Source of the DNA: Myxococcales bacterium
GTDB taxonomy: Bacteria; Myxococcota_A; UBA9042
Reading direction: 5' to 3'
Assembly (NCBI GenBank): GCA_037441385.1
Contig: JBBISH010000037.1
Location: 1 to 48,014, forward strand
Length of the DNA stretch: 48,014 nucleotides
In this document: positions 24,029 through 44,105 of the stretch, piece after piece
Layout: every line of letters begins with the position of its first letter
Numbering within the stretch: the first letter of the stretch is position 1
Translations under genes and position numbers: made by a program
Notes under the pieces: generated by a model
The model's database searches: none
What the model was told of the DNA's origin: nothing
What the model saw: only the letters and a program-made list of their open reading frames with translations

Positions 24029-26119
24029 ATGGCCAATCGCACCACCACGTGGATTACGGCGGTTGCCATCGGCGCGGTGGTGGGCCTGACGGCCTGGGCC
24101 GCCAGCACGACGCGCCTGGGGCGCGACTTGGAAGCCCGCAGTTGGGACTGGCGCGTGCGGCTGTTGACGCCCGAGCGCGCGACGGCCGACACGGTGGTGG
24201 TCGCCCTGGACGAAGCGAGCCTGCGCTGGCTCAACCGGGACCAGCATATTCCGTGGCCGCTGCCCCGGGATGCGTGGTGTCCGCTGCTGGCTGAACTGCA
24301 GGCTTGTGGCGCGCGGGCGGTGGTCTTCGACTTCCAGTTCGTAGAAGAAACCGAGTACGACGACGGTTTTGCGCAGTGTCTGCGCGACACCGGCAAGACC
24401 GCGGTGGGCTGGCACTGCATGGGCGACGCGCCCGGCGAACTGCCGCCGTGGGGAGTGCCCAGCGCGAGGCAGGGCAAGCCGCGAACTTGTCTACCCATTA
24501 CTCCGGTGGCCAGCGTGGCCGGCGCGGTGCGGTGGGGCGGGCTGGTCGACATGGAGCCGGACCCCGACGGCGTGGTGCGCAAGTCGACTCCGCTGCGGCC
24601 CCTGACTGACAAGCAGGCGTATCCGTCGTTGGGTCTGGTGGCCGCGATGTTGGCGACCGGGGCGACGCCGACCTTGAGCGAAGGCGCGATCCACTTGGCG
24701 GATCGGCAGTTGCCGCTGGACGGCGACGGCCGGGTGCTGCTGCCTTGGCGGCGGCCGGGCAACGAGGTCCCGGTCATCCCGGTCAAAGCTGTGTATGCCG
24801 GGGGGCTGGCGCGGCAACAGGGCCTGACGGACCCGTTTGACGCGGCACGCGTGCGCGACAAAGTGGTGTTCGTGGCCGGAACCGCGGCCGGCACGTACGA
24901 ATTCCGGGTGACACCCGTGGCCGAAGGCGTGCCCGGCGTGTTCGTTCACACCGCCCTGTACGAAGCGCTGCGCAGCGGCCCCGCTCAACGCGAACTGCCT
25001 GCGCCGCTGGCGTTTTTGGCGACCCTTTTGCTGGCCGTGGCCATCGCCGCCTCGGTGGTGGCGCTGGACGGCGCCCGCACCCAACTGCTGGTGGCGCTGG
25101 CGTGGCTGGCGCTGTACCTGTTGGCCATCGGGCTGGGTTATCGCCAGGCTGGCCTGTGGCTGCCCTTGTTGGCGCCGTTGCTGGCAGGTTTGCTAGCGTT
25201 TGCCGCCGGTTCTGTGACCCAGTACCGCTGGGTCGGCCGCGAGCGCCGCACCATTCGGACCGCCTTTGCCCAGTACCTGGCGCCGGCGGTCATCGAGGAA
25301 CTGGTCCGCAATCCAGAGGCCTTGCGCTTGGGCGGGACACGCCGCGAGATCACGGCGTTCTTCTCGGATATTCGCGGCTTTACTACCATCAGCGAGAAAT
25401 TGGACCCGGCCGAGCTGGTGGCGCTCTTGAACGAGTGCCTGGGCGCCATGACCGACCTGCTGCTGGACGAGGGCGGCACCATCGACAAGTACATTGGCGA
25501 CGCCATCGTGGCGATGTTTGGCGCGCCACTTCCATTGGAGAATCACGCACTACACGCTGCGCGGTCGGCCATCCGTTGCCAAGAGATGTTGGCCAAGCAA
25601 CGGCCGATTTGGCAGGCGCGCGGGCTGCCCGAGCTGCACGTGCGCATCGGCCTGAACACCGGCATGGCGCTGGTGGGCAACATGGGATCGCAGAAACGCT
25701 TTGACTACACCATGATCGGTGACACAGTGAACCTGGCGGCCCGCTTGGAAGGCACGGCGGGCCACTACGGCGTGCCCATTCTGATCTCAGAGGCCGTGGC
25801 CGAGCGGGTGCGCGACGTGCTGCTGGTCCGCGAGCTGGATGCCGTGCAGGTCAAGGGCAAGAAGGTGGCTGTGCGGGTTTTTGAGCTGATGGGCGAACTT
25901 GCGACCGCCACGCCCGAGCAGAAACAGCGAGTCGCCACGTGGTTGGCTGGGCTGGCGGCTTACCGCGAGCAGCGCTGGGACGACGCCGAGGCCCACTGGC
26001 AGCCCTTGGCCGCCGCGAACGACGGTCCTGCCACCACCCTGTTGGCGCGCATCCCACATTTGCGCCGCCAGCCGCCGGCCGCGGATTGGGGTGGCGTGTT
26101 CGAGATGACCAGCAAATAG
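24029..26119 (+). CDS. CHASE2-domain class III adenylate cyclase
   Basis: CHASE2 motifs (VVALDE, DPDGVVR, PGVFVH), 3 TM, FFSDIRGFT, IDKYIGDA, YTMIGDTVNLAARLE. Confidence 0.93.
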   Translation: MANRTTTWITAVAIGAVVGLTAWAASTTRLGRDLEARSWDWRVRLLTPERATADTVVVALDEASLRWLNRDQHIPWPLPRDAWCPLLAELQACGARAVVFDFQFVEETEYDDGFAQCLRDTGKTAVGWHCMGDAPGELPPWGVPSARQGKPRTCLPITPVASVAGAVRWGGLVDMEPDPDGVVRKSTPLRPLTDKQAYPSLGLVAAMLATGATPTLSEGAIHLADRQLPLDGDGRVLLPWRRPGNEVPVIPVKAVYAGGLARQQGLTDPFDAARVRDKVVFVAGTAAGTYEFRVTPVAEGVPGVFVHTALYEALRSGPAQRELPAPLAFLATLLLAVAIAASVVALDGARTQLLVALAWLALYLLAIGLGYRQAGLWLPLLAPLLAGLLAFAAGSVTQYRWVGRERRTIRTAFAQYLAPAVIEELVRNPEALRLGGTRREITAFFSDIRGFTTISEKLDPAELVALLNECLGAMTDLLLDEGGTIDKYIGDAIVAMFGAPLPLENHALHAARSAIRCQEMLAKQRPIWQARGLPELHVRIGLNTGMALVGNMGSQKRFDYTMIGDTVNLAARLEGTAGHYGVPILISEAVAERVRDVLLVRELDAVQVKGKKVAVRVFELMGELATATPEQKQRVATWLAGLAAYREQRWDDAEAHWQPLAAANDGPATTLLARIPHLRRQPPAADWGGVFEMTSK

Positions 26120-26186
26120 ACGCAGTTGTGTGTGCTTGCCGTCAGCCGTCGGCGAGCCTAGCATTTGCTGCAAAGGGGGAAGTGGC

Positions 26187-26807
26187 ATGGCCGATCTCAA
26201 TCCAAACCTGTCCGCAGCGCGGCGAGGCCTGTGGGGCTTGGCCCTGGCCAGCTTCCTGGTCGCGGCGCCGGCCTGGGCTGACAAAACCGTTTACGTAAAC
26301 ACGCGTTACGCTAAACTGCGCGATGGCAAGACCTCGGCCAGCAAAGAGCTGGTCAAGCTGGCCTACGGCGAGGCCGTGACCGTGCAGGCCGACGAGGGCG
26401 CTTTTCTCCGCGTTTCCACCGCCGCCAAAATCACAGGCTACCTGGGCAAGCAGTGGGTCGCCGACAGCCTGCCGTCGCGCAACCAAACGGCCGAGGGCTT
26501 GGGCGAGGCGGCCCGCGCCGGGACCGGCGGAGTGTCCTACACCGCGGGGGCGCGCGGATTGTCCAGCGAAGCCGAAGAGTACGCCTCGTCCAAGGCCGAC
26601 GCCGCCACCGCCATCGCTGCCGTCAAGCAAATGGAGGCCTTTGCCATCAGCGACGACGAGCTGGATACCTTCTTGAAGACCGGGCACTTGGGCGAGTACC
26701 GCTACTTGGTGCGCGCCTGCCCGCGTCCCGAGCAGTTGGTCTCGTCCGCGCAGGCCGTGAATCTTCAGGCCCTGAACGCCAAGGTGCGCAGCAGGGGGCT
26801 CCGATGA
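26187..26807 (+). CDS. Secreted SH3-domain protein
   Basis: Signal peptide AWA; AKLRDG...LAYGEAVTV...FLRV...GYL; TAGARGL motif. Confidence 0.75.
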   Translation: MADLNPNLSAARRGLWGLALASFLVAAPAWADKTVYVNTRYAKLRDGKTSASKELVKLAYGEAVTVQADEGAFLRVSTAAKITGYLGKQWVADSLPSRNQTAEGLGEAARAGTGGVSYTAGARGLSSEAEEYASSKADAATAIAAVKQMEAFAISDDELDTFLKTGHLGEYRYLVRACPRPEQLVSSAQAVNLQALNAKVRSRGLR

Positions 26808-27616
26808 TAAGGATTGTCAAGGCCTTGTGGGTCGCAGCCCTGCTCGCCACAGCGGGCTGTAGCATCCTGCCGTTCTCTGTCGACACCATGTCCCTGGTGC
26901 GGGCTGGCGGTGCGCAACTGCCCGTCAGTCCAGAGGAAGAAGTGTCGTTTGGCGGCGCCATCGCCGTAATGATCGTCCAGAAGTACGGCGGCATCGACCC
27001 CAACCCGGCGTGGAACCAATACGTCAACTTGGTCGGTCAAAGCGTGGCGATGCACAGCGCGCGCCCTGGGCTCGCCTACCACTTTGCGGTGCTGGCCAGC
27101 GACGACGTCAACGCGATGTCGGCGCCAGGTGGCTACGTCTTTGTGACGCGCGGTGCGCTGAAAGCCTGCAAGAACGAAGCGGAACTTGCCGGCATTCTGG
27201 CGCATGAAGTGGGCCATGTTGCCGCCGGTCATGGCCGGCGCATCCTGCAGAACCTGAAAAGCGCGGCCGCCGCGTCGGAAAGTGTGCAGGTCGCGGGTGC
27301 CAGCGGCGCGGTGTTCAAGGCCAGTCTAGACAAGTTCTTGACGGACTACCTGAGCCGCGGTTTGCCCCACGACGACGAATTCGAAGCCGACCGGATGGGC
27401 ACCGAAGTGGCGGCGCGAGTGGGCTGGCGCAGCGGCGGCCTGCAGGACTTCTTGCAGCGCATGGGCGAAAAGCCGACCAAGTCCGACCAGTTCTTTGCCA
27501 CGCATCCGGACACGGCCGAGCGCGTCAAGCGCCTGGGCGAAGTGCTGGCGCCGCTGGGCCGCGACAAGGGCGAGACCCTGGAAGCCCGCTTCACTGCTGC
27601 GGTCGCCGGTCCGTAG
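26804..27616 (+). CDS. M48-family zinc metallopeptidase lipoprotein
   Basis: ATGA overlap with the SH3 gene; NAMSAPGG, LAHEVGH, EFEAD, FFATHP. Confidence 0.9.
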   Translation: MIRIVKALWVAALLATAGCSILPFSVDTMSLVRAGGAQLPVSPEEEVSFGGAIAVMIVQKYGGIDPNPAWNQYVNLVGQSVAMHSARPGLAYHFAVLASDDVNAMSAPGGYVFVTRGALKACKNEAELAGILAHEVGHVAAGHGRRILQNLKSAAAASESVQVAGASGAVFKASLDKFLTDYLSRGLPHDDEFEADRMGTEVAARVGWRSGGLQDFLQRMGEKPTKSDQFFATHPDTAERVKRLGEVLAPLGRDKGETLEARFTAAVAGP

Positions 27617-27634: not shown

Positions 27635-28084
27635 ATGACGCCGCGCCGCACGCTCGAACTGGTTCTGGCTGTCTATACCTTTCTTTACGTGGTCTTTGGC
27701 CTCGTCGTCCTGTTTGGCGAGACGCACGTGTACGCGCTGTTGGACGCCCAGCAGGCCCTGCTGGGCCTGGGGCATCCCAGTGGGGGCGCACCGCCGGTGG
27801 CGCTGTGGAAGTATGTGGCTTTGGGGCTGATCTTGGTGCTGGCCTTGTTCAGCCTGTGGTCGTGGCGCGATGTCGAGCGCGGTCGGCCGCTGTTGCACCT
27901 GATGATCTACGCCAAGTTCTTTTCGGGCGCGCTGATGGTCGGGCACTTTGTCTTGGCGGGCGGCCAGACGGCGTTTTTGTTGGGTGGGCTGTCCGACCTC
28001 GCCATGGGCGCTGGGGTGTGGCTGCCCCTTGTGCGGGTGTTCCCCAGCACGAATCGTGACTTGCTCAGTCTGCGCATGCCCTGA
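27635..28084 (+). CDS. Four-TM membrane protein
   Basis: Four hydrophobic segments; follows the M48 gene closely. Confidence 0.7.
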   Translation: MTPRRTLELVLAVYTFLYVVFGLVVLFGETHVYALLDAQQALLGLGHPSGGAPPVALWKYVALGLILVLALFSLWSWRDVERGRPLLHLMIYAKFFSGALMVGHFVLAGGQTAFLLGGLSDLAMGAGVWLPLVRVFPSTNRDLLSLRMP

Positions 28085-28130: not shown

Positions 28131-28742
28131 CTACGGTCCCTGGCAGTAGCCGGCGGCGTTGCACGAGCTGGGCGGCGTGCCCATGCCCGGCTTGGGGCAG
28201 TCCATTTGCGTGCTGCACGCGGGCCGGCACACCTTGCTGCCATCGCCCAGGGTCGCGCAGGTGCAGCCTTTGCTGGCCACGGCGGTGCACGCCAGGTCGG
28301 CTTTGCAGTCGGCCGTGGACTCGCATTTACCTGTAGTTGCAGCGACTTCCGCGGTGGATCGGCAAGTGCCGTTGGTCTGGCAAGTGCGCTTGTTGCCGCA
28401 GGCGAAGCCCGCGTTGCAGTCGGGTAGGCACGCCCCCACCGCCGTGTCGCACACGTAGCCGCTGCGGCAGTCGCTGCTGGCGGTGCACGTCGCCAGGCAG
28501 TAGCTCGCGCTGTCCAGGGCGACGCACGTGCCGCCGTCGCAGGTGCTGCCGCTGCAGGTCGCGCTGCAGGTGCCGCCCGTCCAGCCCGTTGCGCTGCCGT
28601 ACATGGTCGCGAGCAGGCACAGGTTGCTGGCGCAGTCGCTGCGGTCGCTGCATGCCGAGCCGACGGCGCCGCTGCCGGTGCTGGCGCACGCTGCCGCCGC
28701 GAACGCCAGGACGGTCAGTGCGAACGTGGTCGGCGCCCTCAC
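28131..28742 (-). CDS. Cys-rich lipoprotein
   Basis: GTGA overlap with the TPR gene; AAAAC lipobox; CxxxxDC repeats. Confidence 0.8.
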   Translation of the reverse strand: MRAPTTFALTVLAFAAAACASTGSGAVGSACSDRSDCASNLCLLATMYGSATGWTGGTCSATCSGSTCDGGTCVALDSASYCLATCTASSDCRSGYVCDTAVGACLPDCNAGFACGNKRTCQTNGTCRSTAEVAATTGKCESTADCKADLACTAVASKGCTCATLGDGSKVCRPACSTQMDCPKPGMGTPPSSCNAAGYCQGP

Positions 28743-29395
28743 TTCAGGGCCTCCAAGCCCGCCTTGGCGCTGGCATTTTGCCGACTGACGCTCAGGACTT
28801 CGGCAAAAGTCGCGCGGGCGTCGTCGCGGCGGCCCAGGCGCAGCAGCGTCCAGCCCAGGCCCAACTGCATCTCCAGATCGCCCGGGTAGTCTTCGAGCAC
28901 CTGCCGATACAGCGCTTCGGCCTCTTTGAACTTGCCTTGCGAGAAGGCGATGTAGGCCAGGCGACTACTTGCCAAGTAGTTGCGCGGCGCCACGGTCAGG
29001 ACCGCCCGCCCCACCCGCTCGGCCGACGCCCACTTCTTGGCGGCCATGAGCGGCAGCATCATGCCCAGCTGCGGCTCCAGCGCCCGCGGCGCCAGCTCGG
29101 CGGCCTTGGTATAGGCGGCGATGGACTCGTCGTAGCGCTGTTTTTGGTAGCTGAGCCACCCCAGGCGCAAGTTCGCCACGTAGTGCTGCGGCGCCAACTG
29201 CAGGATCTGCTGCACATCGGCCAGGGCCTTGGGATAGTTGTTGGTTGCCTCGTGCGAGAACGAACTCTCGAACAACTCGGCAATTCGCGCCCGTTGCGCG
29301 GCGGCGCCGGCATCCTCGGCGTGGCTGCGCGGCGACAGCCCCGCCACGGCCGCCAGCGCCAGCACCACTACGATGACCATCGTCCCTCGCTTCAT
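28739..29395 (-). CDS. Periplasmic tetratricopeptide repeat protein
   Basis: GGAGG RBS, signal peptide, TPR units (ANLRLGWLSY...AYTKAAELAP). Confidence 0.88.
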   Translation of the reverse strand: MKRGTMVIVVVLALAAVAGLSPRSHAEDAGAAAQRARIAELFESSFSHEATNNYPKALADVQQILQLAPQHYVANLRLGWLSYQKQRYDESIAAYTKAAELAPRALEPQLGMMLPLMAAKKWASAERVGRAVLTVAPRNYLASSRLAYIAFSQGKFKEAEALYRQVLEDYPGDLEMQLGLGWTLLRLGRRDDARATFAEVLSVSRQNASAKAGLEALK

Positions 29396-29461
29396 TAGAA
29401 CCTCCTTGTCTCTCAACGAGTTGCGGCCTCGGGCTTTGCTCCGGGCCGGCTGGGTGTCTCT

Positions 29462-30472
29462 TCAGAATTGCCAGCGCAAGCCCACCGTGCCGCCCAACAG
29501 TTCAAAACTGTGTGCCTTTCCGTCTTGGCGCATCCCAAAGTCCTGGCTCCACACCGCGTCCAGGGCCAGCCCGCCGCCCAGGCCGTAGCTCGCGCCCAGG
29601 CGATAGCCGCCGCGGTACACTTCGCTGCCGGTCCAGACCGACAACCCTGCGGACTCCAAAGCGTACTGACCGCGGCCATACCAGCCCAAGGCGGTCAGCT
29701 CCAAGTCGGCCAGTGGCCGCCAAGTGGCCCCCAAGCGCGCCGAAGGCCGCAGCACCGACCCCACTTCGCTCAAGCGCAGCCCCAAAGCGACGTCCAGGTT
29801 GGGGGTCAGGCGGCCAAACAGGCGCGGCTCCACCTGCACGACGGTCGTGTTCGGCAGCCACAGCGCGCTTGCCGACAAGTCGGCACCCCAGCTCTGGCCG
29901 CGGTACTGACCGGACAGGCTCGCGAGTGGACTGCCGTTTATGTCCGACGAGGTCGCCGTCACCAGCCCGGCGCTCCCGGTTAGCCGCAGCGCACCCCACT
30001 CGGCCCAGCCGCCCGCCACGGTCACCGACTGCCAAAAATTGTCACTTTGGTAGTTCAGCACGGTCCGCGAGGTCGTCTGCCCAAGCCACCAGCCGCCGCG
30101 GGCCCGATCGGCGCCAGCGAGGAGCGAAACGCCCGATACCGAATCGGAATTCCAAGCGCTGGTATAGCCCAAGTAGCTGCCCCAAACGGCCGCGCGCGGT
30201 CGCCACGGATCGCTCGCCGCAGCCGGTGGCAGAGTCGGGGCAGCGCAGACTTTGGCCTCGCAGTCTTGCAGTCGCAGCTGCAGCATGTGCAGGGCCGCCG
30301 CCTCGGCACTGGGGACATCGCTGGTAGGCGTTTCGGCACGGGCCGCGTCGACGGGCGCGGTCTCTTCGGCGGCCGGCGGCACCGGCAAGGGGGCTTCGTC
30401 CGCGACCACCGGCGGGGTCCCGCCGAGCAGGACCACCACAGTACTCAAGCTGGCAAGAACAAGTCTTTTCAT
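29462..30472 (-). CDS. Putative outer-membrane beta-barrel
   Basis: ATGA overlap with the upstream gene; signal peptide; alternating strands; ends VGLRWQF. Confidence 0.78.
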   Translation of the reverse strand: MKRLVLASLSTVVVLLGGTPPVVADEAPLPVPPAAEETAPVDAARAETPTSDVPSAEAAALHMLQLRLQDCEAKVCAAPTLPPAAASDPWRPRAAVWGSYLGYTSAWNSDSVSGVSLLAGADRARGGWWLGQTTSRTVLNYQSDNFWQSVTVAGGWAEWGALRLTGSAGLVTATSSDINGSPLASLSGQYRGQSWGADLSASALWLPNTTVVQVEPRLFGRLTPNLDVALGLRLSEVGSVLRPSARLGATWRPLADLELTALGWYGRGQYALESAGLSVWTGSEVYRGGYRLGASYGLGGGLALDAVWSQDFGMRQDGKAHSFELLGGTVGLRWQF

Positions 30473-32640
30473 GGTGCAACCTCGGCATCGACCACGGCCT
30501 CGCCGCCGCGCCAGCCGCGCAGACCCACCAGGCCGCGTTGCCGGTCGATGTGCAGCTCCAGGCGTTCGGGCAGCCCTGGCGCAGCGGCGATTTCGGTAGT
30601 GACCACCCAGCCTTGCGGTGTGACCCGCGTCCGGCTGCGGGTCTGCAGCCCGCCGCCATCGCCCAGCGGCAGCAGCAACTCGGCACCCAGCCGGCGCAGC
30701 GGCGACAAGAAGGGCAGCGCGCTGGGGCTGTCGTGCCATTGCACGGTTGCATCGGCCGCAAAGGGCACCCGCGCCGCCGCCACGGCAAACAGCGCGAGCA
30801 GGCTCCGCGGCGATCCGCGGAAATCCAGCACCGTCGCATACGAATCGTCCACGTAGATGCCCGCCGAGGCGTCGTCGCTGACCAACCGTCGCTGGCCCAG
30901 CGCGTCGATCGTGCTCGTCCAGGTCTGCGGGGTGGCATGGCCCTTGAACTGCCAGTTCCACGTGTTGCCCGGCGCGAGCGCCAGGGCCGTGCGCAGCTCG
31001 GCGTCGGGTTGCAGGGCCTCGATCAGGTCGCCCTCGGCCGGGCTGGCGTGGGTCAGATAGCGGCGCTCACCCTGGCTGGTGCGAATGAACTGCAGAAATT
31101 CGGCGGGGATCGTCGGCGCGCCCACCTCGGGGCTCGCCTGGACTTGCAGGTGCAAGTGCGGCACCGGCGAGCGGCCCGAATTGCCGACCCGCGCCAGCAG
31201 CTGACCGCGGACCACTGTGGCCCCTTCGCGGACTTGCAGGCTGCCTTGCTGCAGGTGGCACAGGGCCGAGTACACCCCGCCGCGATGGGCAATCACCAGC
31301 GCATTTCCCCAGTTGCGGGCCGTGTCGACATGGCCGATCGGGTTGTCCGGCAGGTGGCCGATGGCCCGCACCACCGTGCCGTCGGCCGGCGCCACTACCG
31401 GCGCGCCAAAGGCGTAGAAGTGATGCGGCTCGGTGCCCGCGTCGCGCCAGCGCTGCCCGTCGTCGTCCTGCACCTCGAAGTCCCACGCGTGGGCATACAG
31501 GCCCTGGTGCGTCAGCGCCCCGCCCGGCCCCTGGCTCACCAGCCAGCGGCCCATCACCGGCAGGTGCAGCAGCGGCACCCCCGGAGGCGGGTAGCGGCGC
31601 GCCTGCTGCAGCACCTGGTCCAGCGCTTCTTCGGGGCGCCCGGCCGATCCGCGCACCAGCTGCAGCGGGCCGGCGCCCAGACGTTGCACCAGCGCCAGCA
31701 GCGTCCCCGCCACCACCAGCACGAACGGCGCGGCCAGCACAGGCAATTCCAGGACTTGTAGCCCCTGCAGCAGCGCCGCGCCCAGCAGGGTCGCCGTCGC
31801 GGCCGTCAACGCCGCCAGCACCAGCGAAGCTTTGGAGAGCACAACGAAAACACCGCCCAGCGCCACCGCCGTCAAGATGGCGTTGAAGCCGAGGAGGTGC
31901 AGCTCCAGGTCGCCATCGGGCCCGCCCAACGCTGCGTAGGTCAGCCGCGCCGCCGCGTAACCCAGCAGCGCCAAAAGGGCGGCCCAGCGCGACCACGCCA
32001 GCAGCGCCAACAGCACCAGCGCCCCCGCCGCCGTCGTCGGCACCATCAGCACCGCGCCCAACGAGCGCAGCAGCGGCACCGCCGCGGTCGGGAGCCAATC
32101 GTGCGGACTGGCCGCCAGAGGCACGCCCGGAGCCACGTGGGCAAAGCGGTGCGCGGCCAGCAGCGCCAGCCAGCCGGCCAGCACAAAGGGCAACGACAGC
32201 AACGGCGCCCCTACGTACCGCTCGAACCAGGGCTTGAGAGCCAGGCCCAGGCCCAGCGCGACCGCCGCCGCCAGCACCACCAGGCCCGCCAGCGCCACGC
32301 TCGGCTTCAGCAGCAGCGCCAAGATCAAGCCCACCAGCAGACCGTTGCAACCCAGCCACTGCACGTCGAATTCCGGCAGCGCCGGCGCAAAGGTCCGCGC
32401 CAGCCCGCGGGTTACGGCCAAGCCCAGCAGGCCCAGGCCGCCCCGCAGCGGGTCCAAGAAGGTCGCCGCCACCAGCAGCAGCGCTGGCAGCCCGCGCATC
32501 CCGAACAAGACCAGCCCGTAGCTGGCCAGCCACTGCTCCGCAACCCGGCGCAGCGGCTGCACTTGCCGCAGCCACGGCTTGGCCGCCGCGGGCATCGGCT
32601 CAACCGCGCTCGCCGCGGGGATGCTGCTGGCAGACTCCAT
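30469..32640 (-). CDS. Urea-transporter-family membrane domain fused to an M23 peptidase domain
   Basis: Duplicated UT-like halves (GCNGLLVG/LSLPFV; GFNAILTA/LAAPFV); M23 motifs HAWD, PVVAPADG, WGN, HL, GNSGRSPVPHLH. Confidence 0.85.
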   Translation of the reverse strand: MESASSIPAASAVEPMPAAAKPWLRQVQPLRRVAEQWLASYGLVLFGMRGLPALLLVAATFLDPLRGGLGLLGLAVTRGLARTFAPALPEFDVQWLGCNGLLVGLILALLLKPSVALAGLVVLAAAVALGLGLALKPWFERYVGAPLLSLPFVLAGWLALLAAHRFAHVAPGVPLAASPHDWLPTAAVPLLRSLGAVLMVPTTAAGALVLLALLAWSRWAALLALLGYAAARLTYAALGGPDGDLELHLLGFNAILTAVALGGVFVVLSKASLVLAALTAATATLLGAALLQGLQVLELPVLAAPFVLVVAGTLLALVQRLGAGPLQLVRGSAGRPEEALDQVLQQARRYPPPGVPLLHLPVMGRWLVSQGPGGALTHQGLYAHAWDFEVQDDDGQRWRDAGTEPHHFYAFGAPVVAPADGTVVRAIGHLPDNPIGHVDTARNWGNALVIAHRGGVYSALCHLQQGSLQVREGATVVRGQLLARVGNSGRSPVPHLHLQVQASPEVGAPTIPAEFLQFIRTSQGERRYLTHASPAEGDLIEALQPDAELRTALALAPGNTWNWQFKGHATPQTWTSTIDALGQRRLVSDDASAGIYVDDSYATVLDFRGSPRSLLALFAVAAARVPFAADATVQWHDSPSALPFLSPLRRLGAELLLPLGDGGGLQTRSRTRVTPQGWVVTTEIAAAPGLPERLELHIDRQRGLVGLRGWRGGEAVVDAEVAP

Positions 32641-32643
32641 CGG

Positions 32644-33993
32644 TTACTCCGCCAGCCGGGCCGGCACCTGCTCCGGGCCCTTCAGGTCGTCCAACACCTC
32701 GGCGCGGCGGATCACGTCGACCTCGCCGTCCTCGCCCAGCAGCACGGCCGCCGGGCGCAGGCGGATGAACTGCATGGACTGCGTCACGTTGTACGCCCCC
32801 ACCGGCCGAATCACCAGCACGTCGCCCGCATCCAGAGGCGGCAGCAGCACGCTGGGGCGCACCACGTCGATGTTCATGCAGAGCGGCCCGTAGACCACCG
32901 TGTCCTCTTGCATGCCGCCGCGGTCCTCGGCCGGCAGCACGTCGTGGCGGTACCAGTAGCTGGTAAAGAGCACGTTGACGCCCGCGTCGACGATGATGGC
33001 GCGGGTGCCGTCGGCCAGGCGCTTTTGCCCCACCACGCTGGTGAGCATGAAGCCAGCCTCGTCGATCAGGGCGCGGCCGGTCTCCAGCAGCAGGGTCGGC
33101 AGCTCGTCCGGGCGGAAACCGGCGCCCAGCAGGGCCCGCGCCACCGCCTCGGCGTAGTCGTCGACCGGCGGGGTGGCGTCGGTGCCCGGCGCGTACTGCG
33201 CGTGCAGCGTGGCCCGCGAGGCAAAACCGCCGCCGATATCCAAGGTTTTCACCACCATCCCGGTCTCGCGGCGCACCTCCAGGGCCAGCTCGGCCAGGCG
33301 CCCGGCCATGCGCCCGTAGGCCGTGGGGTCGGTGACGTAAGTGCCGATGTGGCAGTGCAGGCCGTCGAGCTGCAGGTGGCCGCCGCTGGCGATGCGCCGC
33401 ACCGCGTCCATGGCCTCGCCGCTGTCCAGGTTGAAGCCAAAGCGGTCCCAGCGCGGGTGGATGCCCACGTCCATGTTGACCCGCAGCGTCACGCCCAGGC
33501 GCCGCCCGGCCTTTTTGGCAATCCGCTCGCAGGCATACAGCTCCTCGAAGTGGTCGACGTGGACGTGCGCGCCCTGCAGCAGCGCCTCTTCCAGCGCCGG
33601 CAGCGGCTTGTAGGGCCCGTTGAACAGGATGTGCGCGTCCGGGATGCCCAGGCGGCGGGCCATCTGGTACTCGTACTCGCTGACCACCTCGGCCCAGGCG
33701 CCCTCTTGGTGGAAGATGCGGCAGACCGCGTCCAGGTAGTTGGTCTTGTAACTCCAGGCGAATTGCACCTTGGGGTAGCGCTGCGAGAACGCCCGCCAGG
33801 CCTCGCGGTAGGCGCGGCGGATGCGGTGCTCGCTGTAGACGAACAGCGGGCTGCCGAATTGCTTGGCCAGATCCGTGACTTTGTGGCCATCGATGCGCTC
33901 CAGCGCCCGCCCGCCCGGCGCCCGGCCGAACTTGTTGGCCAGCGCGGCCTGGTGGCGAAGAATCGTTGGCTTCTCGTAGGGTTGACGGTCCAT
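32644..33993 (-). CDS. PLP-dependent decarboxylase, Orn/DAP/Arg (LysA-like) family
   Basis: SYKTNY (PLP Lys), HCHIG, DIGGGF, ETGR, GPLCMNID, GAY; AGGAGG RBS. Confidence 0.9.
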   Translation of the reverse strand: MDRQPYEKPTILRHQAALANKFGRAPGGRALERIDGHKVTDLAKQFGSPLFVYSEHRIRRAYREAWRAFSQRYPKVQFAWSYKTNYLDAVCRIFHQEGAWAEVVSEYEYQMARRLGIPDAHILFNGPYKPLPALEEALLQGAHVHVDHFEELYACERIAKKAGRRLGVTLRVNMDVGIHPRWDRFGFNLDSGEAMDAVRRIASGGHLQLDGLHCHIGTYVTDPTAYGRMAGRLAELALEVRRETGMVVKTLDIGGGFASRATLHAQYAPGTDATPPVDDYAEAVARALLGAGFRPDELPTLLLETGRALIDEAGFMLTSVVGQKRLADGTRAIIVDAGVNVLFTSYWYRHDVLPAEDRGGMQEDTVVYGPLCMNIDVVRPSVLLPPLDAGDVLVIRPVGAYNVTQSMQFIRLRPAAVLLGEDGEVDVIRRAEVLDDLKGPEQVPARLAE

Positions 33994-34017
33994 CGGGTCC
34001 TCCTGTTCGTTCGTCGT

Positions 34018-35061
34018 TTAGCGATGCAGTTCGCCCACCGTGGTCAGGGCCTGGTAATCGGCCAGCGCGCACACCTGGTCCAGGCTGTGGCGCAGGAACA
34101 GCACGCCGGGCGCAGGCGGCGGCATGGGCTCGACCTTGCGGCCCAGCGCCAGCTCCACCGTGGCCCACGGCAGGTTGCGCTCGGCACCCGCGCACAGGTA
34201 CACCCACGCCGGGAAACGCGGATTGATTTCAATCAGATGACACGAGCCCCCCTCGTGCGCACGCATCACCTCGAGCTCGCACGGCCCGCGCCACTTCAAC
34301 GCGGCGATGGTGGTGCGGACAAACGCGTCCAGCTCCGGGTCGGCCACGGTAATCCCGCCCCACGCCTTGCCTTTGTCGGTCAGCTGCATCTTGCGCATCG
34401 GCACGGCGCCGATGACACCGCCCTCGCCGTCGCCCAGGACGGTGATGTCGAACTCCACGCCGGCCACGTACTCCTGCACCACCACCGGCACACCCCACTT
34501 GGCGCGCAACCGCTGGAAATGGCTGTAGACCTCCATGGGCGTGTGGGCGATGGCTGCCTCGTAGAACTGGCCCTTGACCATCACCGGGAACTGGATCTGC
34601 TGGTCCAGCTTGGCGATCGCCGACTCCTCCATCAGGTTCACCCCGCGCGGCACCCGCACGCCGCGGTCGTTCAGGGCCGCCAGTTGGTCCTTGGCGCGCA
34701 GCTTCAGGCTGTCTTGGCTGGGCAGCAGGGTAGCGATGCCCATGGCGCGCAGCTGCGGCTCCAGCTTCAGCAGCCCGGCCAGCTCGGAATCCAGCGTGGG
34801 AATCAGCACATCGATGGGTGTGTGGGCGTGGATGGCGCTCAGCCGCTCCAGCGTGACCGCGGTGCCCTGCGACGGGTACGGCATCAGGTACACGTGGTCG
34901 GCGATGCCATCCATGTAGGCGCCCGGGTCCAGGGCGTCGTAGCCCAGGCCGATGATGCACACGTCCGGATTCGCCTTGCGGATCGAGCGGATCACCGGCA
35001 CGCCCGGCCCCGGGTTGTCGGTGGCGTTCAGGCCGCTGACGGCTACCGTGAGCTTGGCCAT
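34018..35061 (-). CDS. ATP-grasp ligase
   Basis: LIPTLDSE, FPVMVKG, VVQEYVAG.E, LIEINPRF. Confidence 0.88.
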   Translation of the reverse strand: MAKLTVAVSGLNATDNPGPGVPVIRSIRKANPDVCIIGLGYDALDPGAYMDGIADHVYLMPYPSQGTAVTLERLSAIHAHTPIDVLIPTLDSELAGLLKLEPQLRAMGIATLLPSQDSLKLRAKDQLAALNDRGVRVPRGVNLMEESAIAKLDQQIQFPVMVKGQFYEAAIAHTPMEVYSHFQRLRAKWGVPVVVQEYVAGVEFDITVLGDGEGGVIGAVPMRKMQLTDKGKAWGGITVADPELDAFVRTTIAALKWRGPCELEVMRAHEGGSCHLIEINPRFPAWVYLCAGAERNLPWATVELALGRKVEPMPPPAPGVLFLRHSLDQVCALADYQALTTVGELHR

Positions 35062-35336
35062 CACATCCCCCCGCTGGCGGCCTGGCCGTTCTCTTGCGGC
35101 GCGTCTGCCCGCAAGTGCAGGTCGCGCAAACGGAACAGGAATTGCTCGGCGTCGCGCTGGGCGGTGGCCTCTTCCACCTCGAAGTGCTCAGCCATGCCCA
35201 TGGCCAGCTCGGCCTCGGCGGTGCCGGCCATCAGGGCCTTGAGCATCCAAGTCGCGGTTTTGTTCAGGGTATAGGTGTTGCCCGTCCGGGTGTCGAACAG
35301 GAAGCCGCTGTCGCTCAGGGCCAGGTGCTGGTACAC
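35061..35336 (-). CDS. PqqD-family / RiPP recognition element protein
   Basis: GFLFDTRTGNTYTLNKTA...HFEVEEATAQRDAEQFL; GGAGG RBS before GTG. Confidence 0.88.
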   Translation of the reverse strand: MYQHLALSDSGFLFDTRTGNTYTLNKTATWMLKALMAGTAEAELAMGMAEHFEVEEATAQRDAEQFLFRLRDLHLRADAPQENGQAASGGM

Positions 35337-35397
35337 GGTTTGCCTCCGTCGCTTGGGGCCGGCGGGTTTGTGGTGCGCCGGCGTGGTTCAATCCATA

Positions 35398-35414
35398 AGC
35401 AAGGGGTGTGCCAA
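35398..35414 (-). promoter_or_regulatory. Sigma54 (-24/-12) promoter
   Basis: TTGGCAC-ACCCC-TTGCT, exact GG-N10-GC spacing, about 60 bp upstream of the PqqD gene. Confidence 0.85.
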
Positions 35415-35529
35415 CTTGGTCGGCACGGCGCAGGCTTGGCAATTTACCATGAATCTTTGTGAGCTTACACGCTGCCCCGCGCGCCCGTCGGCGGGGGCTG
35501 GGGCCCTGTTCCGGCTGGGAATGGCCCAA

Positions 35530-35597
35530 GAAGTGCAAATTTTGCACTTCGGTCGCGCAAGAACTGCATCTTGGCGGCTGGGGTGCAGATTTTGCAC
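35530..35597. promoter_or_regulatory. Putative enhancer (bEBP-binding) palindromes
   Basis: GAAGTGCAAA-T-TTTGCACTTC (35530-35550), CGCA-N5-TGCA (35556-35568), GTGCAGATTTTGCAC (35583-35597). Confidence 0.7.
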
Positions 35598-35660
35598 TCG
35601 TGGTGCAGGTGGCATCGGGTAGTGGTGGAAATCGTGATGCAGGACAGGGAATTAGCCTGT

Positions 35661-37052
35661 TCACGCGGTCTCCCCACGCCGCCAGCCCGCCACCGCCAGC
35701 CCACTGAGGCCAAACCGCACCGCGTTCCCTTCGTGCAGCGCGGCCAGCTCGCCAAGCGCCACCTGCACGAACCGCGGACGATCGGCCGCGGCCACCGAGT
35801 CCGGCGTGTACTCCACGACTTGCGCCTCGCTGGCCGGCTGTCCGCTGGCCACCACCGCGCGCACCACCTCGCCCAGTTGCCGGCGGTACTTCAGGCGCAC
35901 CGGCTCGGGCGGCACCAACTGCTGCTCCACGGCGGCGTAGTGCTGGCAACTGCGCTCGTACGCCCACACGAACACATCTCGCATCAGGTCGACCTTGCCC
36001 AGCTCGTAAATGCCCAAGATCGCATCGGTATACGCGGCTTCGGGCAGATCCAGGAACGCCAGCGGCACCAAATTGTGACGAATCAGCGGCACATTGGCGG
36101 CCAGGCGCGACACCCGCTTGTTGACGTCTTCAAACGGCTGCAGGTACGGCAGGTGAACCAGGACGAACAGCGCCTGCTCAAACGGGTCGGCGATGGCGTT
36201 CGCGGTCGCACACAGCAAGGCAAACACCTGCTCCAGGCGCTGCGGCAACGCCAGGGGCAAGTAGACGCTGCCGCCGATGCCCACCGCCCGTCGCCGCAGA
36301 CGCCCACAGGCGGCCGGATCGGCCAACAGGCCGTCGGACAGAAGTGCATGAAGATCCAACAGGGTAGCCGGGCCCAGGTCCAGCCCGGCGGCTCGGTCCA
36401 CCAGGTACTCGATGGCCGCCTTGTGGTTCAAGATCATCTGCGCTTCCACGGCGTCGTGGCCGGCGGCAGTCTCGCCAAAGGCAATCAGGCGCTCGGTGTC
36501 CAGGCGCGTGTAGGTGTTGCCCTCCAGCCGGCTCGACGCCCACGCCAAGTCGATTAGCAATCGGCTCAGGATCTCTTTGGCAAACGTGCCGGCGACATCG
36601 GCCGCGTGACCGGCGCGCCCCAGCGAGGCCAGCGATTGCCGAAGCGACTCAGGCAGATACCAAGTGTGTCCCGGCCGATACGCCTCGAGTAGCTCCAGGC
36701 GATAGCTGACCGGCTCGCGCAACGCCTGCGGACGGCGGACAGCGGCGACGATGGCCACGGACTCGGGCGAGAGCGGAACGATTCCCGCATACTCGGGGAC
36801 TTGCTCGGCACTGCGGCTGGCAGGAACGGGGGCCGGCGGCAACTGGCCAAGCCCATAGCGGACCGCGCGCCCCGAACCGCCCGCCAGCACCTGCCCGGAC
36901 TGTGCCATGGCCGCCAAGTGCCGCTGCAAAGTCCGCTTCGGCACAGGGGAAGGCAGGTGGGACAGCAGCTCGGACACGCCAAGCCCGGCTGGGTGATTCG
37001 CAAGCGCGGTCAAAATGCTCGCGTCGATCGACTCGGAGTGGAAGGTGGCCAT
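35661..37052 (-). CDS. Fic-family protein with N-terminal winged HTH
   Basis: SSRLEGN, MILNHK, variant Fic motif YLQPFEDVNKRVSR; N-terminal PKRTLQRHL...RAVRY. Confidence 0.9.
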   Translation of the reverse strand: MATFHSESIDASILTALANHPAGLGVSELLSHLPSPVPKRTLQRHLAAMAQSGQVLAGGSGRAVRYGLGQLPPAPVPASRSAEQVPEYAGIVPLSPESVAIVAAVRRPQALREPVSYRLELLEAYRPGHTWYLPESLRQSLASLGRAGHAADVAGTFAKEILSRLLIDLAWASSRLEGNTYTRLDTERLIAFGETAAGHDAVEAQMILNHKAAIEYLVDRAAGLDLGPATLLDLHALLSDGLLADPAACGRLRRRAVGIGGSVYLPLALPQRLEQVFALLCATANAIADPFEQALFVLVHLPYLQPFEDVNKRVSRLAANVPLIRHNLVPLAFLDLPEAAYTDAILGIYELGKVDLMRDVFVWAYERSCQHYAAVEQQLVPPEPVRLKYRRQLGEVVRAVVASGQPASEAQVVEYTPDSVAAADRPRFVQVALGELAALHEGNAVRFGLSGLAVAGWRRGETA

Positions 37053-37069
37053 CGGCAGACCGCCGCGTT

Positions 37070-37157
37070 TCGCGCCAAGCTGGTGGCGCGCAAATCGAGT
37101 ATCGCGCCAGTTGGAGTGGCGCGCAAGCGACGAATCGCGCCAAGGAAGTGGCGCGCA
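37070..37157. promoter_or_regulatory. Three tandem palindromes upstream of fic (putative operators)
   Basis: TCGCGCCA-N5/6-GTGGCGCGCA at 37070, 37102 and 37135. Confidence 0.65.
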
Positions 37158-37293
37158 TTGGGCGCTGGTGGTGCGGAAGGGTCTGGGGTGGGCGGATGGG
37201 GCGCCGGGAATTCAGGAGCCCGGGAATGATCAGGAAGTCTTGGTGTTACTTGCGTCCCGGGGCCGTTTTGGGATCCTACTCGTGGTCGCGTAG

Positions 37294-37401
37294 GACTTCT
37301 TGCACCGCCAGCTCACCCAGCGGCGGTACCTGCACGGTCACACGCCGCCCATCATTCACCGCGACATCAACCCGTTCAACCTGAGGCGGCGCCGCCGTTG
37401 A
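37294..37401 (+). pseudogene. Ser/Thr protein kinase catalytic-loop remnant
   Basis: Reads YLHGHTPPIIHRDINPFNL between stop codons, with no other kinase subdomains. Confidence 0.55.
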
Positions 37402-37668
37402 CGGGGACGTGACTACTTCTTTGTCAAGCTCCCCGTCGTCGAATGACGACATCTCGGCCGGCCGGACACGCTGGTTGCCGGCTGCGCGGGTCGGCTGCCG
37501 ACACGTCAGCCCACCCGCGCTTCCGCGACCTGAGTCTCCGTCGGTCTCTTCCGCGTCAAGTGGCTTCCCCGTGTAGATCCATGAATTCGCACACTTCGTG
37601 CCGAATTCACGTCTCTCCACGTGGGTCCACTTGACCCGTTGGCACGCTTCCCTGCGCCCAGGCCCGGA

Positions 37669-38928
37669 CTACGCCGCCTCGTCGAGTTCGTTTGCCTCCT
37701 CGACCGTGCTCAGCACGCCTTGCGCCCACACCACACCTTTGCTCTGCAACGCCTTGATATACCGGGTCTCGTCGTACGCCTCGCCAGTGCGCAGCAAGGC
37801 CGCCAGTAGGCGCAGCAGCGACCGCGCGATGATCCTCAGTGCTGTTCCATGGTTCTTGCCGTGTTGCCTCAGGTATGCGTACTGCGCTTTGGCCCATTTC
37901 AGGCGCATCATCGCCTGCATCGCCAGCAGATAGCTCGTGCGGCGGCCGCGCACTGGTGCCGACTTGCGCATCCGGACCACGTTGAGGCTCTTGCCGCTCT
38001 GGCGCTTGACGGGACTGGCGCCGCACCACACGGCCAGGTCGTCGCGGTCGCCTTGCGCCAAGTTCACCGCGCCCAGTGCCAGCAGGCTGATCGCCAGGGT
38101 AACGCCAATCCCGGGCGTGCTGCGCAACGTCGTGCTTTCGGTATACCGCTCGGCCAGCTTGTCCATGGCGCTGTCGATATCAGCTTGCTGCTTGCGCAAT
38201 TGCCGTAACTCGCCCACCAGCCGGCGTACACGAGCGGCGTGTGCCGCGCGAACTTCGCTCGCCATCGCCACCCACGGCTCGGCCAACGCCGACACAATCG
38301 CCGCCCGACGCTTGCTGTGGAACCGGCAGCGCCCGAGCAGCTCCTCGCGGTCGTGCTCGCTGAGCGCGGCTCCGTCCTGCCAGGTCGGCACCGCCTCCAC
38401 CACCGCCAGAGCCGCCTGCGTCCACATCTGCGATAGCGACCGCTCCAGCGCTGGATGCACCTTGACCAACTCCTCGCGCAACTGATTGGTCGCACGCTGA
38501 ATCTTGCTCAGCACGTCGTCGTGATCGTCCAGAAGAACGCCCGCTGTCTCGCGCAGCGCCTCGGGCGGCTCCCAGGCCTCGATGCGGTGGTGGCTGCTGT
38601 CCAGCATCCGCAATAGCGTCTCGGCGTCGCGCTCGTCGTCCTTGGCGCCACTCGATGTCAGCGATTCGGCAAACCTTCGGGCTTGCTTGGCGTCCTGCAC
38701 GTAGACCACGGCCTCACGCGCATGCAGGGCGGCCGCCAGGCCCGCATCGCCGGCCTCGATGCTCACCTCTACCCCGACGTCATTGCCACCGAGCTGCTGA
38801 GCTGCAGCCATCAACTCGTCGACACCCTCAAGGCTACGTACAACCTTGAGCTTCCTGTGCTTTTCGCCACACCGTAACCGCGCGACCGACTCCCGCCGCG
38901 CCCAATCAATACCCATCTGGACAAGCAT
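37669..38928 (-). CDS. IS110-family DEDD recombinase/transposase
   Basis: GIDWA, SIEAG, KDDERDA (DEDD), STPGIG, SPVKRQSGK (catalytic Ser); GGAGG RBS. Confidence 0.93.
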   Translation of the reverse strand: MLVQMGIDWARRESVARLRCGEKHRKLKVVRSLEGVDELMAAAQQLGGNDVGVEVSIEAGDAGLAAALHAREAVVYVQDAKQARRFAESLTSSGAKDDERDAETLLRMLDSSHHRIEAWEPPEALRETAGVLLDDHDDVLSKIQRATNQLREELVKVHPALERSLSQMWTQAALAVVEAVPTWQDGAALSEHDREELLGRCRFHSKRRAAIVSALAEPWVAMASEVRAAHAARVRRLVGELRQLRKQQADIDSAMDKLAERYTESTTLRSTPGIGVTLAISLLALGAVNLAQGDRDDLAVWCGASPVKRQSGKSLNVVRMRKSAPVRGRRTSYLLAMQAMMRLKWAKAQYAYLRQHGKNHGTALRIIARSLLRLLAALLRTGEAYDETRYIKALQSKGVVWAQGVLSTVEEANELDEAA

Positions 38929-38946
38929 GACCACCTCCGGCAAAGT

Positions 38947-39180
38947 GGCCGTGCGTCGCTGCGGGCGCGCGGGGCTTCCCTATGATACCAGTGCGTTACA
39001 CCTGCCGCTTACAGGGAGTGCTGGTACGTGACTACGGCCCTCGGCCCGCAGCGGCGCGTCGGCCCGCATGTCCCCCCCTGGCACTCGAAGTGCTGGGGCA
39101 AATACGGCGTGACCGACGCGTCGCACGGCCGACCCAAGACCTACCGCAAACTACCCATTTGCGCACGCCTCGAGCCTGAA
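38947..39180 (-). ncRNA. Putative IS110 bridge RNA
   Basis: Outer stem 38947-38955/39122-39130 encloses two stem-internal-loop-stem domains. Confidence 0.65.
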
Positions 39181-39325
39181 GCAGTCATAGGGGGGCGCTG
39201 CGCGGCGGACCTTTGGCCGTGTGGGCATTTTGCTGGAAATTCAGTGAGAAATTGGCGTTGACGGGGGTCAATCGCGGGCGTAGGCTCAGGGCTCCGAGGC
39301 CGGAAGGCCCGGTTTGGCGGGGGCA

Positions 39326-40572: not shown

Positions 40573-40671
40573 GGCAAGGGCGCCGGTCGCAGGTCGGAGG
40601 CCTGCTCGTACCCGAACCAGTCGGCAGCGGTCCCGCTTGGCCAAGGCGCGCCCGCCCGCTCTCAGCCTTCC

Positions 40672-42765: not shown

Positions 42766-44101
<1,336 letters not shown>

Positions 44102-44105
<4 letters not shown>

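Follow-up and report, generated by a model that had tools for sequence, protein, structure and literature searches.

The described systems that come closest to the locus reported here each resemble one part of it. In the rhizoferrin pathway of Francisella, FslA and FslC (FigA/FigC) ligate an acid to ornithine and then decarboxylate the conjugate. In butirosin biosynthesis (BtrI/BtrJ/BtrK), an ATP-grasp ligase, the fold class to which we take BtrJ to belong, works with a LysA-fold decarboxylase that acts on gamma-linked, tethered glutamate. Lasso/LPP pathways for peptides that are made on the ribosome and modified after translation (RiPPs) use B1-type RiPP recognition elements (RREs; TbiB1, TfuB1/FusB1, PbaB1, and LppB), urea transporters (UTs; dvUT, SLC14 UT-A/UT-B, and Yut) share a fold of 10 transmembrane plus 2 half helices, and polymer exporters (PgaA, AlgK/AlgE, BcsC, and PelB/C) combine a periplasmic TPR module with an outer-membrane barrel. 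Here, we analyzed an operon whose products resemble parts of these systems, located in a 48,014-nt stretch of DNA (contig JBBISH010000037.1, assembly GCA_037441385.1) from a Myxococcales bacterium (Myxococcota_A; UBA9042); the whole stretch is referred to as the window, and all positions are numbered in it. The first six genes of the operon are a conserved cassette, and the seventh, encoding a Cys-rich lipoprotein, is a clade-specific addition. Our reading, held tentatively and at somewhat less than even chances, is that the region represents the Myxococcota form of a widespread, uncharacterized, envelope-spanning six-gene cassette plus a clade lipoprotein, which would work in the steps (a) to (e) given below with the evidence for each. 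We infer each chemical and transport step from the observed gene order, conservation, folds, motifs, and topology.

The operon comprises seven minus-strand open reading frames (ORFs), all in the same direction, at 28131-35336. From 5' to 3', they encode a PqqD-fold protein, an ATP-grasp ligase, a fold-III pyridoxal phosphate (PLP) decarboxylase, a membrane protein in which a UT domain is fused to an M23 peptidase domain (UT-M23), an outer-membrane β-barrel, a periplasmic TPR protein, and the Cys-rich lipoprotein (Table 1). The junctions measure -4, +24, +3, -4, +45 to +66, and -4 nt in this order, with 4-nt start/stop overlaps of ATP-grasp on PqqD and of the barrel on UT-M23. The first-pass annotation of this DNA had described seven co-directional genes with overlapping or very short junctions; all seven ORFs were found, with junctions of -4 to about +66 nt, and each of its domain assignments was reproduced by Pfam and NCBIfam.

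The co-occurrence of the cassette genes is far beyond chance. In a survey of 185,579 species genomes with the UT-M23 alignment as the seed, a UT-M23 relative was encoded by at least 587 pattern matches (587 of the 599 listed). Eighty loci were kept, of which 11 belonged to Myxococcota/'Deltaproteobacteria', 5 to Cloacimonadota, 10 to Ignavibacteria/Melioribacteraceae, and 1 to 'Alphaproteobacteria', 2 were unclassified, and the remainder belonged to Bacteroidota; culturable carriers include Mucilaginibacter, Pedobacter, and Chitinophaga. Upstream of UT-M23, in the 57 loci with at least 3.7 kb of upstream flank, the ATP-grasp and decarboxylase genes were each present in 57 and the PqqD gene in 56. 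Downstream, in the 68 loci with at least 2.6 kb of flank, the TPR gene was present in 67, the Cys-rich lipoprotein in 4, and the barrel in 61, the last count being approximate because the barrel was found by an iterated hidden Markov model (HMM) on the barrel domain and this profile also absorbed the N-terminal TPR of Bacteroidota fusions. The seven 'missing' barrels include those of L022, L024, L026, and L027, in which a longest-ORF start broke the position rule although the iterated HMM had found the barrel. The complete six-gene core was present in 46 of the 52 loci having both flanks. Thus, the gene-neighborhood survey bore out the co-occurrence of the genes in other genomes for the six core genes, and the lipoprotein, which had been counted as part of the gene set, drops out of it.

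A strong ATP-grasp orthologue (E-value of 1e-94 or better) was present in 8 of 40 relatives' genomes. The order PqqD, ATP-grasp, decarboxylase, and UT-M23 was identical in all six relatives' loci examined, one of which ends at a contig end, and the TPR gene came next in all five that extend far enough; four of four further Myxococcota loci had the same core. Within the phylum, the UT-M23 fusion was patchy: of 301 genomes with a completeness of at least 85%, 33 carried it, as did 32 of 209 genera, and the cassette is therefore accessory. Open frames of ~1200 aa suggested a fusion of the decarboxylase to UT-M23; this was rejected, as the two genes of L018 are read in different frames and the long open frame is an artifact of high GC content. 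The same core genes in the same order stand in hundreds of species-representative genomes, where database names give the membrane protein only as 'urea transporter'. Searches of the full-text literature, with subscription journals and supplements lying outside their coverage, returned no description of the cassette, in line with the initial statement that no characterized pathway with this gene set was known.

The decarboxylase is predicted to be of the type acting on amide conjugates, not a LysA. It scored 229.8 bits against the lysA model (TIGR01048), under the cut-off of 297.9, and a true LysA (518.3 bits, over the cut-off) is encoded on another contig of the same genome; the concern that the cassette enzyme might be the ordinary LysA of the organism was thereby removed. 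The nearest solved chain was the N-citrylornithine decarboxylase 7kh2 (2.1e-59), followed by archaeal LysA (1e-44) and BtrK (2.7e-32). Like this FslC-type enzyme, which reads C-M-Q-H-D, the cassette enzymes have C-M (C-M-N-I-D) in place of the C-E-S of LysA (C-E-S-x-D); the window enzyme reads G-P-L-C-M-N-I-D and the LysA of its own genome G-P-V-C-E-S-G-D. None of the 24 aligned cassette enzymes had the 4-residue loop that stands just before the C-E-S motif in LysA. The C-E-S-x-D residues and the longer loop of LysA bind the free distal end of diaminopimelate (DAP), and their loss would fit a substrate whose distal end is amide-bonded. The fold-III PLP motifs common to LysA (PLP-binding Lys, H-I-G-T/S, G-G-G, and E-x-G-R) were kept, with K83, H215/G217, G254-256, and E304/G306/R307 invariant or nearly so.

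The likeness to the rhizoferrin pathway has limits. The decarboxylase scored 215.4 bits against the NCBIfam FslC model (NF041039), far under the cut-off of 500, and the cassette ligase is an ATP-grasp enzyme, not a nonribosomal-peptide-synthetase-independent siderophore (NIS) synthetase; an IucA/IucC-type NIS synthetase was not found in a Pfam scan of the seven operon proteins. The cassette has no siderophore uptake genes, and the FslA/FslC system is without counterparts of the RRE, UT-M23, TPR, and barrel proteins. The ligase of the window is PRK12767-like by NCBIfam, its profile matched the carbamoyl-phosphate synthetase large chain (4e-17) and 2pn1 (4.6e-13), and K164, E204, E279, N281, and R283 were invariant in 24 sequences. 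In step (b), whose chances we place just short of even, the cytoplasmic ATP-grasp enzyme would join a carboxylate and an amine through an amide bond, giving an alpha-amino acid conjugate (N-acyl-ornithine or gamma-glutamyl type), and the PLP enzyme would then remove the alpha-carboxylate to leave an amide-linked amine. By analogy with the enzymes named above, it is reasonable to infer a product that is amide-linked and decarboxylated.

The PqqD-fold protein is assigned by its motifs as a discrete leader receptor (RRE) of the lasso-B1 type. A profile of 23 cassette PqqD proteins matched TbiB1 (1.4e-12), TfuB1 (8.9e-11), and PbaB1 (3.7e-6), with PqqD itself at 0.012-0.015; the score against NCBIfam lasso_PqqD was 48.8 bits vs a cut-off of 70. 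Discrete RREs have been described as holding a [Y/W]xxPx[L/V/I/F/A] leader, with D70 of LppB hydrogen-bonded to the leader Tyr and a Phe (F74 in LppB, F83 in PbaB1) separating two hydrophobic pockets lined by Met/Leu residues (PMC13381572). In the HMMER alignment, D62/F66/L70/L75 of the cassette PqqD protein aligned with D-x3-F-x3-M-x4-L of LppB, which was assigned by spacing to the published D70/F74/M78/L83 numbering (PMC13381572). Among 73 cassette RREs, Asp62 was kept in 62, an aromatic residue at 66 in 73, Leu70 in 69, and an aliphatic residue at 75 in 73, so that the Tyr-binding Asp, the pocket-dividing aromatic, and the Leu positions of the lasso/LPP B1 RREs, as described there, are retained.

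A possible ligand was found within the operon. The cassette decarboxylases carry an N-terminal extension of ~31 residues that is absent from the LysA of the genome, and a leader-like motif lies in it. The pattern [YF]xxPx[ILV] occurred in the tail of 24 of 24 aligned cassette decarboxylases, and the looser [YFW]xxPx[ILVFA], with a chance occurrence roughly estimated at about 1 in 20, in all 75 whose N-terminus was covered. In leader peptides, the YxxPxL motif stands at positions -17 to -12 (PMC10368454). There is no room for a precursor gene between the promoter and PqqD or at any operon junction, and no B2 protease, C cyclase, or precursor gene was found among the seven operon genes. The cassette thus differs from lasso/LPP systems both in having the motif on the N-terminus of a 449-residue enzyme instead of a precursor peptide and in being without the B2 protease, C cyclase, and kinase. 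The best candidate ligand of the PqqD protein is the N-terminal tail of the decarboxylase itself, and the first-pass suggestion that the PqqD domain presents peptides to modifying enzymes was set aside, since the operon encodes no peptide. In step (c), which we consider moderately likely from these motifs, the PqqD-fold receptor would clamp the leader-like tail, with no separate precursor, and would keep the decarboxylase next to the ligase, the membrane protein, or both. If true, a RiPP leader-recognition fold would have been recruited to hold an enzyme through a built-in 'leader'. A role of the PqqD protein as a carrier with a reactive C-terminus was rejected, as the C-termini were not conserved in 73 sequences. 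One PqqD-ATP-grasp fusion protein was observed (P0122, 435 aa, from a single contig with a Bacteroidota-like cassette); it may reflect a lost stop codon or a real fusion, because the start Met of the ATP-grasp part is still visible at the joint.

The same receptor could serve a true RiPP pathway with an unlinked precursor, in which the RRE would recognize a YxxPxL leader on a peptide whose gene lies elsewhere, the ATP-grasp enzyme would make an isopeptide or C-terminal amide, the decarboxylase would modify an appended residue, the M23 domain would act as the leader peptidase, and the UT-like protein, TPR protein, and barrel would export the peptide. The lasso-B1 type of the RRE with its leader-binding residues kept speaks for it, as does the parallel of an RRE, a protease, and an ATP-dependent amide former with lasso B1/B2/C. 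We regard it as unlikely: no precursor-sized gene was conserved within the operon in the loci read, the recognition motif sits on the decarboxylase in all 75 sequences, the decarboxylase resembles enzymes for small conjugates, and a slot pore of UT size would, judging from UT structures in general, be too narrow for a folded peptide.

Lys21 in the decarboxylase tail was invariant in the 24-sequence alignment, and this bears on tethered or iterative chemistry in the manner of BtrI/BtrJ/BtrK or LysW/LysX. The substrate would be carried on Lys21 or on a growing chain, and the ligase and decarboxylase would alternate (adding Glu or Asp, then removing CO2) to yield an omega-aminoacyl oligomer or polyamide, which M23 would cut and the UT pore and barrel would thread. 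BtrK is a detectable relative of the decarboxylase, a dedicated route built of TPR protein and barrel makes more sense for a polymer than for a small solute, and the UT pore is a narrow slot for planar amides (PMC11589576). However, a Pfam scan found no carrier protein or phosphopantetheine domain in the operon proteins, where the butirosin system has an acyl carrier protein; the small protein of the cassette has instead a PqqD fold without a conserved C-terminal attachment site. FslC, an enzyme of free conjugates, is the closer relative, BtrK being more distant than FslC or LysA, and no polymerase-like processivity element was identified, which together make the tethered scheme quite unlikely in our judgment. 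To the cassette as a machine for a linear, unbranched amide chain, we give a smaller chance: the receptor-clamped ligase and decarboxylase would alternate, adding an acidic amino acid by its side-chain carboxylate and then removing the alpha-carboxylate, with cutting by M23 and export through the UT pore, TPR protein, and barrel. If this were true, the product would be a bacterial surface polymer of a new class, and the UT and RRE folds would each have a new use.

The AlphaFold2 model of the UT-M23 protein (pLDDT 88.2, pTM 0.82) placed an M23 domain and a β-rich C-terminal domain after the UT fold. The UT part (~320 residues) matched four UT structures (dvUT and human UTs) at Z 38.0-38.6 with an rmsd of 2.3-3.0 and a TMt of 0.85; it scored 147.4 bits against Pfam UT (cut-off 25) and 104 bits against the Yut model TIGR03441 (cut-off 274.6). 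In characterized UTs, urea conduction has been assigned to the polar ladder QPb-T5b-T5a-QPa (Q-T-T-Q), the pore is slot-shaped, narrow, and fitted to planar amides, and both termini face the cytoplasm (PMC11589576). In the alignments with dvUT and among 15 members, the ladder positions of the window protein were, in the order just given, Ala207, Ala303, Ser149, and Leu43. Of the 15 family members, none kept QPb or T5b and five kept QPa, and T5a was Ser in all 15. The cassette protein therefore differs from urea transporters in being without the polar ladder as well as in its fusion to M23 and a further domain, and the UT-like pore, if it is a pore, is predicted not to be a canonical urea pore. 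The C-terminal domain gave weak matches at the noise level of the tool (Z 7.8-8.7) to a Parabacteroides lipoprotein (4fvs), lipovitellin, and LolA; matches in the protein atlas scored <0.9 and are leads only.

The M23 domain matched LytM domains at Z 12-14 and scored 56.8 bits in Pfam (cut-off 28.7), whereas its NCBIfam matches to Pgp3, MepM, DipM, and ShyA were all under the cut-offs. The H-x-H motif (H495 and H497) and the upstream His (H462) were invariant in the 15 members and aligned with zoocin A and other M23 chains, and the first zinc motif of the family reads T-H378...H384-x2-D387-F388. The canonical spacing of the first M23 zinc motif is H-x3-D. The model showed no signal peptide and no extra helix between the UT part and M23; as the UT termini are cytoplasmic, the M23 and C-terminal domains should therefore be cytoplasmic, and the M23 domain therefore cannot cut mature peptidoglycan. 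In a natural UT-M23-TPR fusion (P0091), a signal-like hydrophobic segment separates the M23 part from the TPR. The earlier proposal of M23 as a peptidoglycan-acting export step was abandoned on these grounds, namely the position of M23 after the cytoplasmic C-terminus of a fold matched at Z 38 and the signal-like segment before the TPR in the fusion. In step (d), the part of the scheme that we find most doubtful, the enzymes would gather at the inner face of the UT-fold protein (trimeric by analogy with solved UTs), the cytoplasmic M23 domain would trim or release the amide product, and the pore would pass this product, not urea, over the inner membrane. If true, the fold of urea transporters would here serve a different solute and carry a protease on the cytoplasmic side.

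A cytoplasmic M23 domain would also suit the editing of cell-wall precursors, in which the ligase, decarboxylase, and M23 domain would act on UDP-MurNAc-peptide or the lipid II stem at the inner leaflet, for example by converting or trimming DAP, and the changed wall would then be dealt with by the envelope proteins. Stem-peptide bonds are the usual target of M23 enzymes, among them those behind the under-cut-off matches listed above, the ATP-grasp enzyme is distantly like Ddl, and the LysA-related decarboxylase differs in distal-end recognition in the way expected if the substrate is bound by this end. Against this, the cassette is patchy among both the relatives and the phylum genomes and is therefore accessory and not part of core wall synthesis, a UT-like channel and an outer-membrane barrel are not needed for such a role, and no Mur or Fem genes were linked in the operon or window scans. 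We therefore rate wall editing very unlikely, a little below the amide-chain machine.

The AlphaFold2 model of the barrel protein contained 14 strands over residues 93-338, with a block pLDDT of about 80-92 except in one loop, and the protein ends in an aromatic residue. The best structure matches were tied among a FadL homologue (Z 19.5), CymA (19.2), TodX (19.1), and OmpG (18.8; TMt 0.69 in Foldseek), compared with 13.7 for PgaA, 13.3 for PelB, and 12.4 for BcsC. The β-barrel call was upheld by this 14-strand model and by the matches to 14-strand outer-membrane barrels at Z 18.5-19.5. The comparison with a PgaA/AlgE-type pore was not, given the 14 strands, the better matches to FadL/CymA/TodX/OmpG (Z 18.8-19.5 vs 12.4-13.7), and the lack of a glycosyltransferase in the operon. 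When 18 members of the barrel family were searched against Pfam at E up to 1, nothing was found except TPR repeats and, in two, a weak generic outer-membrane-barrel match. The family was recovered in other phyla by the iterated HMM; in Bacteroidota, the barrel has a TPR fused to its N-terminal side, and in Ignavibacteria and the window it is a separate protein. The TPR protein matched TPR_2 and 19 other TPR/ARM-type Pfam families. Polymer exporters thus share the periplasmic TPR module and outer-membrane barrel with the cassette, including their fusion in Bacteroidota members, but the cassette has no glycosyltransferase or cyclic di-GMP receptor, its barrel is a 14-stranded FadL/CymA/OmpG-like one, and the PgaA model PGA_TPR_OMP scored 34.8 bits vs a cut-off of 366. 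In step (e), which is possible but held with less confidence than step (b), the periplasmic TPR protein and the 14-stranded barrel would carry the product over the outer membrane.

The TPR protein also matched TPR_Slam at 31.6 bits, and a Slam-like role was weighed in which the TPR protein, barrel, and lipoprotein display a surface protein or lipoprotein and the enzymes make a cofactor or modification for it. In Bacteroidota, the TPR and 14-strand barrel lie in one protein, an architecture also found in Slam, and each lineage adds its own secreted protein (the Cys-rich lipoprotein here, a protein of 284-300 aa in L039 and L081). The TPR_Slam score is nevertheless under the cut-off of 35.2 and stands among 20 unspecific TPR matches, none of the 18 barrel-family members matched the Slam barrel family at E up to 1, no Slam chain appeared among the matches of the barrel structure search, and the lipoprotein was missing from 64 of 68 loci. 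Slam-like display is the least probable of the readings considered.

The Cys-rich lipoprotein gave tblastn matches of 35-53% identity in L015, L016, L021, L022, L024, and L025, and protein-atlas leads (scores <0.9) to myxobacterial Cys-rich modules. In L019 (G038, same class), a Cys-rich gene at ~14057-15082 lies upstream of PqqD, not at the operon end; internal repeats are suggested because it gave three overlapping tblastn matches. In two Ignavibacteria-type cassettes, homologous secreted proteins of 284-300 aa are encoded directly upstream of PqqD (L039, 6469-7323; L081, 6464-7366), and these are another lineage-specific extracytoplasmic add-on, like the Cys-rich lipoprotein.

Several points weigh against the proposed synthesis and export of an amide-linked product. 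Each chemical step is an analogy, and the docking of the RRE on the decarboxylase tail is argued from motifs. Among solved structures, the ATP-grasp enzyme is nearest to carbamoyl-phosphate synthetase and the biotin carboxylases and not to ligases of peptides or amino acids, and a Pfam scan of the operon found no partner like FslA (an NIS synthetase) or BtrI (a carrier protein). The UT-like domain might do no more than anchor the protein in the membrane; the missing ladder speaks against urea without pointing to any other solute. The M23 domain may be a non-catalytic binding module because its zinc spacing is non-canonical (H384-x2-D387 or H378-x8-D387). Finally, a small soluble amide has no obvious need for a dedicated TPR-plus-barrel route over the outer membrane. 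If the proposal is nonetheless true, the cassette represents an unrecognized way to produce an amide-linked amine compound or polymer and to export it.

The operon lies behind a predicted sigma54 promoter. Apart from the element TGGCACACCCCTTGC, the window has no exact TGGCAC-N5-TTGC. When one mismatch was tolerated, 11 matches were found vs 7.4 expected, and the argument therefore leans on the exact site and on its conservation alone. Of the 17 Myxococcota loci inspected (window included), 9 had a GG-N10-GC element at 54-100 nt upstream of PqqD (counted from its start), and 8 of these 9 promoter-bearing loci also had a TGCA-N5-TGCA palindrome, at 60-100 nt upstream of the -24 element. The two palindromes of the window are candidate enhancer-binding-protein sites, to which a regulator may bind. 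The consensus promoter named in the first-pass annotation is thus supported by the exact element, its conservation in nine loci, and the presence of rpoN in the genome (280.8 bits).

Farther upstream, the window encodes a histidine kinase and an NtrC-type activator. In L015 (same genus), L021, L025, and L016, the genes orthologous to these two stand immediately upstream of PqqD and share its strand, and the pair probably represents the cognate regulators of the operon. The DNA is colinear with L015 and L021 across the kinase and activator genes as far as 42771 and again from 35339. The 7.4 kb block at 35337-42770, which parts the pair from the operon in the window, is absent in these relatives and looks like an insertion or an IS-mediated rearrangement. 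Within it, the B12-binding radical-SAM gene is probably co-transcribed with the two-component system because it overlaps the NtrC stop by 4 nt. Its best NCBIfam match was a subfamily of RiPP-maturation radical-SAM C-methyltransferases (88 bits vs a cut-off of 282); it was rejected as a cassette member, as a search of the related loci (E up to 1e-10) gave no match to at least half of its length. In step (a), the kinase and NtrC-type activator would turn on the operon via the sigma54 promoter and the upstream palindromes, which we consider likely. Other phyla use other regulators, such as the response regulators upstream in Mucilaginibacter. The probable sigma54 two-component control in this Myxococcota lineage points to a conditional, signal-dependent function.

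Table 1. Features of the operon and its upstream region in the window
Feature	Position	Strand	Remarks
Cys-rich lipoprotein	28131-28742	-	203 aa; no Pfam or NCBIfam match
Periplasmic TPR protein with signal peptide	28739-29416, likely ATG at 29395	-	TPR_2 1.7e-22
Outer-membrane β-barrel with signal peptide	29462-30472 (ATG start)	-	no Pfam match; AlphaFold2 model
UT+M23 membrane fusion protein	30469-32640	-	723 aa; Pfam UT 6.4e-43, Peptidase_M23 2.6e-15
UT-M23 domains (residues)			UT fold ~6-349; M23 ~355-518; β-rich C-terminal domain ~547-723 (AlphaFold2 + Pfam)
Fold-III PLP decarboxylase	32644-33993	-	449 aa; Pfam Orn_Arg_deC_N 2.6e-32, 112.6 bits
Leader-like motif Y-E-K-P-T-I	33961-33978	-	decarboxylase residues 6-11, in N-terminal extension
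ATP-grasp ligase	34018-35064	-	348 aa; Pfam ATPgrasp_Ter PF15632 2e-8
PqqD-fold protein	35061-35336	-	91 aa; PF05402 5.7e-13
sigma54 -24/-12 element TGGCACACCCCTTGC (TGGCAC-N5-TTGC)	35399-35413	-	63 nt upstream of PqqD start
Two 15-nt palindromes GTGCAAAAT(C/T)TGCAC	35583-35597, 35533-35547	-	candidate sites; about 120-185 nt upstream of -24 element
HTH/Fic-domain gene	35661-37052		inside 7.4 kb block
IS110-family transposase	37669-38943		inside 7.4 kb block
ORFs without family match	about 39594-40644		inside 7.4 kb block
B12-binding radical-SAM gene	40672-42765	-	inside 7.4 kb block
NtrC-type sigma54 activator	42762-44105	-	Sigma54_activat 2.5e-71 + Response_reg + HTH_8
Histidine kinase	44102-45469	-	HisKA + HATPase_c

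Beyond the 3' end of the operon, a small gene at 27635-28084 lies on the plus strand and is convergent with it. It is preceded on the same strand, at 24029-27616, by genes for a CHASE2-adenylate/guanylate cyclase, a 225 aa protein without a family match, and an M48 peptidase. Two more Cys-rich, secreted-looking proteins are encoded on the minus strand of the window (46374-47963 and 6127-8097), one with Dictyostelium-type CTDC repeats and the other with Kazal-type inhibitor domains. A 17-nt perfect palindrome, TGGCAATCGAATTGCCA, is present twice (4905-4921 and 5878-5894, 973 nt apart); it surfaced in the sigma54 pattern search as one-mismatch matches on both strands.

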